A stretch of 63,960 bases of DNA, counting the filler, from Octopus bimaculoides (Eukaryota): the NCBI RefSeq assembly GCF_001194135.2. It is 7 parts of 6 records of this genome, joined end to end, with 100 filler letters (N's around TTAATTAATTAA, not from the genome) between each part and the next. Parts side by side here need not be neighbours in the genome. Positions count along the whole stretch, not along the records: positions 4,566 to 31,892 come from NC_068987.1; positions 31,993 to 46,444 come from NC_068982.1; positions 46,545 to 52,527 come from NC_068995.1; positions 52,628 to 57,232 come from NC_068987.1; 3 more parts are not named here. One strand, written 5' to 3'. The position numbers and the translations under genes are program-made. Under the pieces are notes generated by a model. It saw nothing but the letters and a program-made list of their open reading frames with translations. It was not told where the DNA came from and made no database searches. Positions within the stretch are counted from its first letter, which is position 1. Every line of letters begins with the position of its first letter. Positions 12,704-57,185 of this stretch are shown piece after piece.

Positions 12704-13261
12704 AAGTATATTTGCCATTTAAATGTGGCTGACCCCTAAGGGTGGATGATACTGTTGCTTTTAGCCCCAGGAGAACATCTCCTCCAGCTGGCTTATCGAC
12801 ACACATCTGTGTCCTGTCTATTTTTGCCAAGGGAAGTTATCCCTCCCCATCTTGATCTGCGATACGTTCGGACCCGTGTTTCAGGGTTATTTCCCTTCTT
12901 CAGCGTACGATAATCGCCGACCTTCGATGAGAAAGACAATCTCTTGGCAAAATATAAGTCTTTTTTCCAGTGAGGTTCTTCACTGATATCGAAAAAGTGA
13001 AAACAAGCAATGATAAATCTCTGAACGAGGTATTAACAGTAACTGCACGATGAAGTGAAGTATATTTGCCATTTGGGAGGGATAACCTCCCTTGGCAAAA
13101 ATAGACAGGACACAGATGTGTGTCGATAAGCCACCTGGAGGAGATGTTCTCCTGGGGCTAAAAGGAACAGTAACATCCACCCTTAGGGGTCAGCCACATT
13201 TAAATGGCAAATATACTTCACTTTATCGTGCAGTTACTGTTAATACCTCGTTCAGAGATTT
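12704..13261 (-). mobile_element. Ribozyme-bearing fold-back element (Penelope pLTR / retrozyme-like, non-autonomous)
   Basis: 12704-12847 is the reverse complement of 13075-13218 (4 mismatches/144). 13015-13074 is the reverse complement of 13202-13261 (1 mismatch/60). HHR1 lies between them. Both flanks abut microsatellite/gap. Confidence 0.75.
12859..12917 (-). ncRNA. Type-I hammerhead ribozyme motif (HHR1)
   Basis: Minus strand reads GCGAU-UAU-CGUACG-CUGAAGA-AGGG-AAAUAA-CCCU-GAAA-C-ACGG-GUC/CGAACG-U-AUCGC. Intact core CUGAAGA/GAAA, 4-bp stem II, 2-bp stem III, GUC triplet, stem I 5/6 bp plus a 5-bp extension. Confidence 0.88.
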
Positions 13262-14850
13262 AACACACACACACACACACACACACACACACACACACAN
13301 NNNNNNNNNNNNNNNNNNNNNNNNNNNNNNNNNNNNNNNNNNNNNNNNNNNNNNNNNNNNNNNNNNNNNNNNNNNNNNNNNNNNNNNNNNNNNNNNNNNN
13401 NNNNNNNNNNNNNNNNNNNNNNNNNNNNNNNNNNNNNNNNNNNNNNNNNNNNNNNNNNNNNNNNNNNNNNNNNNNNNNNNNNNNNNNNNNNNNNNNNNNN
13501 NNNNNNNNNNNNNNNNNNNNNNNNNNNNNNNNNNNNNNNNNNNNNNNNNNNNNNNNNNNNNNNNNNNNNNNNNNNNNNNNNNNNNNNNNNNNNNNNNNNN
13601 NNNNNNNNNNNNNNNNNNNNNNNNNNNNNNNNNNNNNNNNNNNNNNNNNNNNNNNNNNNNNNNNNNNNNNNNNNNNNNNNNNNNNNNNNNNNNNNNNNNN
13701 NNNNNNNNNNNNNNNNNNNNNNNNNNNNNNNNNNNNNNNNNNNNNNNNNNNNNNNNNNNNNNNNNNNNNNNNNNNNNNNNNNNNNNNNNNNNNNNNNNNN
13801 NNNNNNNNNNNNNNNAGAGAGAGAGAGAGAGAGAGAGAGAGAGAGAGAGAGAGAGAGAGAGAGAGAGAGAGAGAGAGAAAACATACTCTTACATTATATA
13901 CTTTATACTCATTTACTACAATAGCAATTTTGATATATCATGTTTGTGAGTAATATTTAAAATATCTAATATAATAGGAACATAAATAAACCGATATTTT
14001 GTAGGCAATTAGTAATTTGGCAAATGATATAGATCTTTTACTGAAAACATGAACAATAAAATACGAAATTATCAATGCCATATAATACAACGAAGCAGAT
14101 AATATCAAAGTTCAGCTGAATGCTGATAATAACAACGCTAATACTAATCAGTAGTTGACGATATAAGATCAGTCAGTTAAATTAGAATAATTGATTAAGT
14201 TTGAACAATTGATTAAATATATATAAGTATGATGGCCTGGGCGAATGTAGCAATACCGAGTTATAATAATGATGCGATATCGATGTAAAAAAAAAAAAAT
14301 TAATGATGCTATGTATAACATAATCATTTGTAAATAGACTTTCGATAAAGTCATAATATACTTGAGGAAACATGTATATGTATATAAGGTTACGATAGAA
14401 ATATGATCATACTTAGATGAATATAATACAAAGGAGTAAGATCAGCTGCAAGAAATAATCCAATTGTTAATGAATAAAGTTAAATTAAAGTAACAATGGG
14501 AATTTATTACTTGTAAACCCTATTTTAATTTTATTATATAAAATCATTATGATTCTTAATATTTCTAAGTAGATATTACCAAGTATTTGCATTTACCTGT
14601 ATTAATATCAATATTTGTAACACTCAAACAAGCTACTGTTCATATTGACACTATCCTGCATCATCTTAATCACAACTATAGCTATGAATTCTTTCTGTTG
14701 TATATTAATTAAAACCACAAAATGTTATGCTTGCACTGAAAGGCGTTTTATATCTATATTACTTAATACATTTTGATTTGCCCTTAAAATCTCAAGGGTT
14801 TCACGAGTACATAATTAACAATCTTACTTATGGACATATTTTGTTTAACT

Positions 14851-15116
14851 CAGTGGTTTCCAATGTGGGTGGCATTGTTCCTCTGGGGGTGGTAGAAAGA
14901 ATCAAGGGGACGCTGTAGAAACATGGAGACGTTAACGAGGTGTCTCGAAATAACAAAATAATACGATAATTAGGTGAAGTTTTATTTATGAAATACAGTT
15001 GTTTCGAATTTGATGCAGAAAGTGGTCTATATTTGTGGTGGTAAGGAGGTGGGGTGAAAGGGATGTGGGCTGGGTTTGAAAGGGGTGGCAGCTCTTAAAA
15101 AATGTGGGTATCATTG
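14851..15116. mobile_element. hAT-Charlie-like MITE
   Basis: cagtggtttccaa .. tgggtatcattg termini; TSD only partly preserved. Confidence 0.6.
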
Positions 15117-15329
15117 GTTTTGTGTATATATAATGTTCCGTTTCTTGATTCAGTGTATGCCTAAGGTATTTTTCGATTTTGTTATTATTATTATTATTAT
15201 TATCATTATTATTATTATTATTATTATTATTATTATTATTATTATTATTATTATTATTCAGGTCACTGCCTCGAATCGAACTCAGACTCTTGGAGTTAGT
15301 AGCCCACGCTTTTAACCACTACGCCATAT

Positions 15330-54217: not shown

Positions 54218-55589
54218 AAAATAAACCAACCCCAGTACATGACTGGAACACTGTTTTTACCCTGGGGAGGGAGATGACGGTGTGAATTCCAGTGAGATAT
54301 GAACACAGACCATAAGAAGAAATATCTAAATATCACATAGCAATTATCTGTTGCTCCACCGATTCTGTCCACCTACAGTAAAGGCTTCTGGGTTGGGTTA
54401 AGTGTGTGTGTGTGCGTGTGAGTGTGTGCACGTGCACATGTGTTTGTGTGTGTGTACGTTGTATATGCACAAGTTTAATGTATTTGTATAGGTGATATGC
54501 TGGTATTGCATGTGTATGTATGTGCTATATATATATACATTGTATGCCAGTGTGTGTGTGTATGTATTTGTAACTATGAATATAGGATAGTATGTGGTGT
54601 GGAGTATATACATGTGCTGTGTGTGTATGTATATAAGTGGCATGTATGCGTGTGTGTGTGTGGTTTATAATTAATAATCTCTCTAACTCCATATCTGTTA
54701 CACAAAATGGATTTGGCTGATCTGTCACACAGAAGACATAAATCACACTAAAGAACCATAAACAAAATTTTATCCATTTTATCAAATTCTTTATCTCTGC
54801 CAAATCAATTCCGTCTTCTCTTCGTTGTCTCACATTTCACTCTCCCTCTTCTCCCTCTTCCTGAATTTCCTGGCCTTCTGCAAAACCTTGAATTCAATAT
54901 GTGCTTATAAAACGTTAAACTCTAGTTGCATTTACCAACCTTTATATGTTAGCTCCACCAGTTAAAAACAGTAGCTAAATCTCCCTCAAACCACATCGTC
55001 ATAGAAACCTGTCGACAATGTCTATCTTTGTGAAATAACATCAGGAGTGTCACAAGTGATTTGATCCCCTCCATCTCTTGATGTACGCTTGGGTACACGC
55101 ATGTTGGTGGGTGGGTGGGTATGTATGTATGCACTGGTGTGCATGTGCATGTGTTGGGGATTGCATATGTATTACAGCAGTATAAGTCCTTACCATAAAT
55201 GTTGAAATTCAACACTAGTTTCCAATTAGAGTCTTTTCTACAAAGATATCACTGTCATACTGTCCCCTCCTTCCCCACCCCCACCACTAAACTCTGATTC
55301 CATGATAATGTAAGAACTGTCAGGAAGTTCTCTTTAACAGTTCCTGCTACTGCTCCTAATCTTTCTCATAAAACATGCCATGACTGATAGACAGGAGATA
55401 TTCAGATATTGAGTCCATATGTCAATTAAACATGTTAATTATGGTTTAAGAAGGAAATGTTAATTATCATGATAAGCAATGCTATTTTATACACAATTTT
55501 AACCGAGAAAACTAGTGGGTGACTTATATATGGGGCAAATTGATATCAAGTTTGAATATGAAAGGAAAAAAAATTGGTACCAAGATCCA

Positions 55590-55960
55590 TCCGTTTTCTC
55601 CATGCAATATTCCTGGGAGGGTCATGGAGGTGGGATTCTTAGACAGCTCCTTCATAGAGTCCAATCAGAAGTAACCGTCGTTAGACTTTCTGGCTTGATT
55701 CCCAAGAGTGACCAACTGAGTCTATTGATATTACCCATTCTTGGACTACTCCGGGTCTCCTGCCATTTGGCTCCACTTGCAGAATCCATCTTGTGATTCT
55801 TCCCTGTGACATTCTAATCATACGTCTGCAGTAGCAGAGTCACGACTGCTTGATGTCGAGAAGTAATAGGTCGACCTGGAGAGATTCCCCCACCTCTGAG
55901 CTATGCACCCTGTAGAGTAACATTACTCCAAAGACCCTTCAGAAGAAGAACCCCCACATC
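55590..55960 (-). mobile_element. RTE-clade LINE 3' end
   Basis: RMSQGRITRWILQVEPNGRRP..PRMG..LSWSLLGIKPE..SDWTL resembles the RTE C-terminal RGRPR..W region. Confidence 0.65.
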
Positions 55961-57000
55961 CGTTACTTGTATTGTACTCGTTTGGTCATCCATGACCAGC
56001 GCTATGGATGGGTATGGAAACCAAATTCAAAGATGGCAAGTTTGGCTTTTCGTACTAAGATTTAAAACTAAATTTGGAGTGTGACTTACACACAAGTAAA
56101 TGTGGTAATTGCCAAATATATACATCACGAGGGAGGGGGGGGTGTAAATTAGTGAGTAGGGGGGAGGGGTTAGAAAGTTATTTCAGTTTGTTGTTTGTAA
56201 ACTCTGTGTACATAATAATAATATAGGGCAGGGGAAGACACAGTGTACGGCAGAAGCAGTGTGTAACTAACTACAGAGTTCAGAGTGAAACGAAGTAAAT
56301 TCCTTCACAAGAATGATGGTCTTCAGAAAGCAGGCATGGAATTGTAGACATGAAACAACAGAATTGGAACCAAGTACAGAATGGTAAAGAATGAAACAAA
56401 CAAACAAACAAGCAACAAACCAACCAAAAGAAAATGTAATTATTTCAAAGAAGAGATATCTAAGAGTGGAATTTGAGAGATAATGTGTTTCATAATGGTA
56501 CTGACAAGCCAATGGAACTATTCTCAGATACAGAAATAGGTAAGTAAGGAATGCAGAAGACTAATAAACATACAATGGCAGTTTTTACAGCTGATTCTAC
56601 AACTAAATTCAACTGTTTAGGGGTTTTCTACTTCTGCTATTATTACTACTACTACTACTGGCGGCGGTGGTGGTGGTGATGGTGGTGGTGGTGGTGGTGG
56701 TAGCAGTAGTAGTGCTGCTGTTGCAATCACACACATCTTTACCTAGACATCATCACCATGAACATCACCATAACCATCTTCATACACACATATACACACA
56801 CACATATATACATATATGTATGAATGCATATGTGTGTGTGTGTATACATATACCCTGATATACATATATGCCTGAGTATGCCTTGATACATATATATATA
56901 TATGTGTGTGTGTGTGTGTGTGTGTATATGTACGTGTGTGTGTGTATGTGTGTGTGTGTATATATATATATATATATATAGATATATATATATATATATA

Positions 57001-57185
57001 TTGAGAGAAAAGGTAAGACAACAAAAGAAAGAAAGAGACCTTGATATTGTGTAAATAGAGGAAATTATCTGTAAATAATATGTGACAATTATTCGGTAGC
57101 CATAATAAAACTCCAAGTTTCGGATGTCGGAGTGGAAACCCACGCCGCCATCTCTTCAGTTATCTCACCATCAAAGAATGCTATA
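57001..57185 (-). mobile_element. Penelope-type pLTR remnant carrying HHR3
   Basis: About 180 bp non-microsatellite island between (TA)n and (TATG)n containing HHR3, followed on the minus strand by a T/C-rich tail. No inverted arm seen. Confidence 0.5.
57104..57164 (-). ncRNA. Type-I hammerhead ribozyme motif (HHR3)
   Basis: Minus strand GAUAA-CUGAAGA-GAUG-G-CGG-C-GUGG-GUUU-CCAC-U-CCG-A-CAUC-C-GAAA-CU-UGG-AGUU/UUAUU. Intact core, long stem II, 3-bp stem III, GUU triplet, 5-bp stem I (one G-U). Confidence 0.8.

Follow-up and report, generated by a model that had tools for sequence, protein, structure and literature searches.

Hammerhead motifs can be numerous in animal genomes, with ~5,000 described in a mussel and ~120,000 in the axolotl (PMC7229834), ~9,000 in Xenopus (PMC4209133) and 235 Rfam hammerhead matches in the giant squid (PMC6962438). 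Penelope-like elements (PLEs) insert in a layout of partial tandem, inverted 5′-truncated copy and 30–40-nt tail, flanked by microsatellites (PMC8557442); the same paper calls the function of the hammerhead in PLEs unclear, while cleavage was unnecessary for insertion in vitro and no pile-up of ends was seen for an Anolis PLE (PMC11167929). A preprint (10.64898/2026.07.22.740005) makes the case that the retrozymes of animals derive from PLEs and are non-autonomous, with no mollusc among the 35 species in its text. Earlier publications thus cover hammerheads in PLE pseudo-long terminal repeats (pseudo-LTRs), the derivation of retrozymes from PLEs and a hammerhead-bearing Hydra element of Octopus. 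Here we compare with these systems a 63,960-base stretch of Octopus bimaculoides DNA (the window; 4,397 of its bases are N, including a gap that cuts island A), which holds three hammerhead motifs, HH-A, HH-B and HH-C, in islands A, B and C, together with a broken PLE open reading frame (ORF), the relic.

Motifs and ORF are most likely ordinary leftovers of this known class of mobile elements. More precisely, we put at roughly 80% the probability that they are independent, mostly dead insertions made by PLE machinery at microsatellites. The analysis was conducted at the level of the window, except that read and contig abundance, and with it the status of a 'family', was examined for island A alone among the three.

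Hammerhead motifs and their chance expectation

The window, AT-rich animal DNA in which 131 rows of tandem repeats were recorded, contains 32 CUGANGA sites, three of which, each on the minus strand, lie in a type I hammerhead fold (core positions 12903 for HH-A, 30738 for HH-B and 57159 for HH-C). All three join the CUGANGA and GAAA core elements to an NUH triplet, with cuts predicted after 12871, 30709 and 57109, respectively. The descriptor scan covered type I hammerheads, and its descriptor was loosened after the motifs had been seen, so as to accept helix II with a single additional base at its foot and helix III in minimal form. With this post hoc adjustment, the three matches compare with shuffle means of 0.074 and 0.056 for two block sizes, and three were reached in 0 of 500 shuffles at either size. 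The strict descriptor returned HH-A alone, with at least one match in 15 of 200 shuffles. Alignments between the islands were no better than those of shuffled sequence (58, 157 and 189 of 200 shuffles scored as high for the three pairs), and, as judged from sequence, islands A, B and C are mutually unrelated. An earlier note on this DNA, which had described three unrelated minus-strand hammerhead islands, is borne out in this observation. A one-mismatch scan gave one further AT-rich match, at 28079, which was not counted.

An independent test set comprised 79 metagenomic Hydra-clade loci related to the protein family of the relic, 27 of which were left out of the 3′-end count for having no mapped ORF end or less than 250 nt of 3′ flank. 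Among the 52 loci whose sequence extended 250 nt or more past the ORF, 40 carried a hammerhead no more than 700 nt from the ORF end. A covariance model was built on 41 of 50 hammerheads extracted from such loci, duplicates and poorly aligned long ones being excluded; 88.6% of the cells in its alignment were paired, compared with 62.6% after shuffling, in a set that had itself been selected for pairing. Its top two matches out of 20 in the window were HH-C (23.7 bits, E 0.004) and HH-A (22.2 bits, E 0.01), followed by a third-best match at E 0.39. Within the metagenomic set, the same hammerhead occurred before and after the ORF, i.e. as full pseudo-LTR tandems, in loci L021, L023, L025, L048 and L051, and the standard 10.1–11.1 pair (alignment columns 20 and 44) was absent from 25 of the 41 Hydra-clade hammerheads, mostly in favor of U-U, as is likewise the case in File S2 of PMC8557442.

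Architecture of the islands and the Penelope-like relic

Island A (12704–13262, minus strand) lies between an N gap to the left, which cuts it, and (AC)n to the right. It is built of a non-coding unit of 354 nt, partially repeated in tandem and preceded at the 5′ end by its own 3′ part in inverted form. Read along the minus strand, the inverted copy of the 3′ part (13262–13075) is followed by a 64-nt terminal piece (13074–13011), the hammerhead body and the terminal piece again, which runs into the gap. The left arm of the fold-back (12704–12847), which represents the portion of the unit 3′ of the cut site, is identical at 140 of 144 positions to the reverse complement of 13075–13218, within the right arm formed by the inverted 5′ copy (13075–13262). 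The pseudo-LTR-like second copy of the terminal 64 nt (13011–13074, minus strand) matches the reverse complement of 13202–13265 at 62 of 64 positions, and because this piece recurs as a direct copy, the period of the island is 354 nt. With a GC content of 43%, the unit lies within the 150–450-nt, low-GC, non-coding range used for retrozymes, and neither Pfam nor the PLE profile matched at 12.7–13.3 kb. What is visible amounts to one unit plus 64 nt, the left side being hidden by the N gap at 12098–12703. HH-A itself (12859–12917, minus strand), recovered by both descriptors and the covariance model, is a canonical type I hammerhead with an internal loop in helix I, a helix II of 4 bp, a helix III of 2 bp and a GUC triplet. 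We infer island A to be a miniature PLE, retrozyme-like and non-autonomous, in which the palindromic helix III would permit dimer cleavage of tandem transcripts.

Island B (30616–30837, minus strand) consists of two arms (30616–30662 and 30756–30802), identical at 47 of 47 positions, and a 35-nt extension (30803–30837), with (TA)n and (CT)n flanks. It encloses HH-B (30706–30741, minus strand), a minimal PLE-type hammerhead under the definition of PMC4209133: an extra, unpaired base between positions 9 and 10.1, just before helix II, is combined with a G10.1–C11.1 pair, and a 4-nt palindrome (15.1–16.1) takes the place of helix III. HH-B is an imperfect motif and the weakest of the three. Island C (57002–57182, minus strand), in contrast to A and B, has no fold-back arms; it is a fragment of ~180 nt ending in (TA)n. 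Its motif, HH-C (57104–57164, minus strand; descriptor and covariance model), is a likewise imperfect type I hammerhead with a helix I of 5 bp, a long helix II bearing one extra base at its foot, a helix III of 3 bp and a GUU triplet. Island C is likely the 5′-truncated 3′ end of a PLE, and B and C together likely represent such ends from two PLE families other than that of A, B being of the minimal type and C Hydra-like. The fold-back arms that the earlier note ascribed to two of the islands are thus those of A and B.

The relic (21917–23735, minus strand) is a decayed Penelope-like ORF with reverse transcriptase (RT), linker and C-terminal GIY-YIG regions and Hydra-clade relatives, its N-terminal part missing. 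PLE profiles align to it in order over 23735–21917, covering profile positions 41–687 of 697 with domain E-values down to 9e-25, in agreement with the RT/GIY-YIG relic reported earlier. Three aligned blocks contain one, four and six stops, with frame changes between them. The longest piece (113 amino acids) matched 190 proteins at E ≤ 0.001 (best 1.6e-7), the long ones of which align along 23720–22319. YVG is found at the nuclease motif, and the order of RT followed by C-terminal GIY-YIG is kept. Pfam gave no match on the relic ORFs; its GIY-YIG model was found only on one relative (P0018), below the cut-off. The Hydra motifs RWK, DKT and CxCX5C are present in 24, 30 and 27 of 31 long relative ORFs, respectively; the relic lacks the RWK region, has GKI in place of DKT and retains a single linker Cys. 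Going by best matches and motifs, the relic appears to be a decayed Hydra-clade relative and not an intact member.

No hammerhead was found at the 3′ end of the relic (21.4–21.9 kb) by descriptor, one-mismatch scan or covariance model, and a candidate at ~21.68 kb, SINE-like (short interspersed element) by eye, was supported by none of these scans. The relic is likely a bystander and not the driver of the islands, and the link between relic and islands drawn in the earlier note is not supported. A 90-nt mariner-like piece (23718–23807), 86% like a mariner relic at 24460–25450, sits at the expected N-terminal part of the ORF. A second, older and more decayed Hydra-type PLE relic lies on the minus strand at 10777–10550 (E 6e-4) and 9889–9779 (E 4.5e-3), with no hammerhead found nearby. 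ORFs at 50.5–51.9 kb, considered as candidates for the Penelope relic, were rejected in favor of a piggyBac-like transposase (PF13843).

Insertion by PLE machinery could have produced these arrangements as follows. In trans, the RT/GIY-YIG protein of a PLE would nick at or near a microsatellite; tandem or read-through RNA would be reverse-transcribed from its 3′ region, with an early stop leading to truncation; and the inverted copy often added by the PLE enzyme would give rise to fold-backs.

Several observations weigh against this account. In the window, no second hammerhead, as a true dimer would have, is visible in island A, which is cut by the gap at 12098–12703. The family A fold-back junction has low depth in the reads, and none of the pieces listed extends across the island in full. 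The hammerhead fold of HH-A is predicted at −9.4 kcal/mol, compared with a minimum of −16.1 kcal/mol. Helix I of HH-B has 3 bp only, its hammerhead fold is predicted to lie 1.6 kcal/mol above the minimum, its region is predicted to fold no better than shuffles (z 0.03), and it is absent from the 20 covariance-model matches, falling below the E 10 level. Rfam reported no hammerhead at its gathering thresholds, in the 150 listed of 263 E-value matches or in three focused scans; the matches listed had sub-gathering scores and were mostly microRNA models on microsatellites. Between relic and islands there was no significant similarity (the best, island B with the 3′ region of the relic, was equaled in 10 of 200 shuffles and is one of 10 comparisons), nor did an autonomous partner turn up for any of the three islands. 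Within family A, the linkage of the subfamily variants described below is inferred from similar frequencies and not shown directly.

Abundance, transcription and variation of family A

Contigs from DNA-type runs of two organisms (two species, here A and B) were matched to island A at 80% likeness, and reads of two RNA runs were matched to it as well. One DNA-type run of organism A yielded 5,452 matching contigs, and for organism B there were 2,827; the summed depth over the family A core reached ~620,000 in organism A, where eight listed pieces had depths of 19–49. These contig and depth figures give no copy number, yet suggest that family A comprises thousands of copies or more. Because family A is so abundant and the motifs are of PLE type, a large genome-wide number of motifs is plausible. 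To this extent the earlier note is supported, as to PLE-type motifs, PLE insertion architecture and a plausible abundance, for which there are published precedents.

Family A is transcribed, the copy in the window hardly so, and cleavage was not seen. Matching RNA reads numbered 903 of 12.9 million and 866 of 12.0 million (~70 per million), on both strands, of which only one and eight were 99% identical to the window copy. About 73% of matching RNA reads continue into unlike sequence, and 33 run on from 13066 in direct orientation. In the two RNA runs, read ends did not pile up at 12870/12871, the predicted cut site of HH-A, and the sole cluster of ends was found at 12945 (five molecules); these libraries may not retain circles, and short cDNA reads cannot tell circles from tandem transcripts. 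The active self-cleavage assumed in the earlier note accordingly finds no support in read ends.

Variants of family A were read from the 40 of 221 difference rows listed. At 12868, the helix-I-pairing base accounts for 99,257 of 99,393 depth (run X1) and differs from the window copy; at 12877, all but ~0.2% differ from it, giving self-complementary versions of helix III, and in organism B 98% and 93% carry two changes that make helix III a perfect 8-nt palindrome. Since the 12868 and 12877 changes are private to it, the window copy is a slightly damaged member of the family. A second type makes up about two-thirds of RNA reads: here, 12913 and 12863 change together (22/31 and 51/75, one strand of X21), 12914 and 12862 are likewise paired, and the changes turn U-A and A-U into C-G and G-C. 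Helices I, II and III surround the core in HH-A, with covariation across family A, and the loose-end consensus of 37 reads has an AUA triplet. Position 12902 (U4) reads C in 313,695 of 588,791 depth in organism A (X1) and in 46/69 and 43/66 reads of X21, compared with only 68 of 15,133 in organism B. It is likely that a large subfamily of family A carries this U4C core change together with the compensated stems. In a published case, U4C lowers in vitro activity yet supports viroid infectivity (PMC3088659).

A stronger interpretation is that all three islands belong to actively expressed families of small circular RNAs (retrozymes) that cleave themselves in vivo and form an 'ecosystem'. It draws on the abundance of family A, its ~70 reads per million and its compensated stems, on the predicted folding of its monomer as a circle with extensive pairing (−101.7 kcal/mol, a value with no shuffle control) and on mussel retrozymes, which behave in this way (PMC7229834). 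However, neither B nor C shows a tandem unit, most RNA reads of family A run into unlike sequence with mates on both strands, and very few are near-identical to the window copy; the lack of an end pile-up at the cut site adds little for family A, as the libraries may lose circles. In addition, minimal PLE hammerheads cleave poorly in vitro (PMC4209133), and among Xenopus retrozyme dimers one of nine was cleaved (10.64898/2026.07.22.740005). Taken together, we consider this interpretation unlikely.

Less probable still is the proposal, likewise made earlier, that the common minus orientation arose through selection against the cutting of a host pre-mRNA transcribed from the plus strand across the window. 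All three motifs and both PLE relics do lie on the minus strand, with p = 0.25 for 3/3 hammerheads and p = 0.0625 for 5/5 when the relics are included. Nevertheless, a Pfam scan of 224 of the 273 candidate ORFs (the 49 left out lie mostly within simple repeats) found only transposase relics above curated cut-offs and no host gene, although short exons would be missed. Retrozymes are depleted from Xenopus introns (10.64898/2026.07.22.740005), and selection against genic copies in general is plausible; it is not shown in this window. Most improbable of all is that the motifs are chance matches inside fold-backs resembling miniature inverted-repeat transposable elements (MITEs) in an AT-rich, repeat-rich genome, a notion to which the missing Rfam match, the post hoc descriptor, the weakness of HH-B and core-less fold-backs at 27715–27831, 39445–39670 and 40136–40245 lend some color, but which the shuffles, the ranking of C and A by the independent model and the paired compensatory changes of family A largely refute for A and C, leaving it a real option for HH-B only.

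Neighboring elements and comparison with known systems

Besides the PLE insertions at microsatellites that we favor, the window contains further repeats. The piggyBac-like transposase relic (50926–51853, minus strand, three pieces; PF13843) belongs to an element of about 50360–52000, for which inspection by eye suggests a TTAA-type end near 50360. A Tc1-like element (33806–35077) has 58-nt terminal inverted repeats (90%) and a broken transposase at 33950–34817 on the plus strand, and the mariner relic (24460–25450, minus strand) has a PF01359 match at 24828–25103. Of the hammerhead-less fold-backs (27715–27831, 39445–39670 and 40136–40245), the last two resemble DNA-transposon MITEs by eye. 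A SINE-like repeat with (CAT)n tails recurs at 38596–38788, 39315–39409, 40613–40805 and 42879–42919, two copies holding CUGAGGA with no hammerhead fold. Sequence at 62028–62627 (plus strand) resembles by eye the 3′ end of a long interspersed element with an (ATA)n tail, has no Pfam match and recurs in part at 63131–63210. An inverted duplication (48683–48855 and 49083–49292) around a (CT)n tract is possibly an assembly artefact. Six gaps (4466–4565, 31893–31992, 46445–46544, 52528–52627, 57233–57332 and 60011–60110), in each of which a 12-nt AT spacer separates two runs of 44 N, were read as scaffolding marks and make distances across them nominal.

The U4C subfamily is the one lead in these data that merits further work. 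Tentatively, and with the odds somewhat against it, family A might be an undescribed, very-high-copy cephalopod retrozyme-like family with PLE-signature insertions, of which one species has amplified and transcribes a U4C subfamily with a remodeled palindromic helix III and a compensated helix I, i.e. an attenuated ribozyme under structural selection. If true, the partial tandem and inverted 5′ copy next to microsatellites would count as evidence, at the level of insertions, that retrozymes are mobilized by PLE enzymes, and the U4 and C4 subfamilies of two species would offer a natural comparison on the need for cleavage in the spread of PLEs and retrozymes. More modestly, a cephalopod example is added to the known picture in which hammerheads, owing to PLE ends and retrozymes, are a frequent repeat motif missed by Rfam. 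Our search for literature on octopus or cephalopod hammerheads and retrozymes turned up only PMC8557442, the squid genome, a paper on the twister ribozyme and PMC10886601; it left subscription journals and repeat databases mostly uncovered, so family A may be catalogued already.

Among described elements, Hydra-1_Obim of Octopus bimaculoides (PMC8557442) has the domain order of the relic and, by eye, the same WFAP linker variant, yet the relic looks too diverged to be a copy of it, with diagnostic motifs decayed or missing and no hammerhead. The Hydra-1_oBim hammerhead in File S2 of that paper shares with HH-C, by eye, a 13-nt stretch around the core, unique within the window although 7 of its 13 positions are core, and a nearby 9-mer; helix II and the 3′ tail differ. 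A 14-nt stretch of HH-C also matches the Naiad_Obim consensus, so that its Hydra-like placement is tentative. HH-B resembles the minimal hammerheads of metazoan PLE pseudo-LTRs (PMC4209133) in its unpaired base between 9 and 10.1, its G10.1–C11.1 pair, the palindromic 15.1–16.1 without helix III and its occurrence as a single, dispersed, truncated copy. It differs in a helix I of 3 bp, compared with 4–5 bp in the published ones, and in a helix II of 4–5 bp, compared with 7–8 bp in Schistosoma, and no parent element was identified for it.

The PLE insertion layout (PMC8557442) reappears to differing extents: as partial tandem and inverted copy with an (AC)n flank in island A, as inverted arms and 35-nt extension with (TA)n/(CT)n in island B, and as a (TA)n end only in island C. 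Compared with the non-LTR retrozymes, such as the 350–390-bp repeats of Mytilus (PMC7229834), island A differs in having one visible full unit, a PLE-type inverted 5′ copy and, in a large subfamily, likely U4C. With these retrozymes it has in common a type I hammerhead and a 354-nt, non-coding partial tandem of 43% GC, and family A likewise is of high copy number, is transcribed and has a short palindromic helix III.

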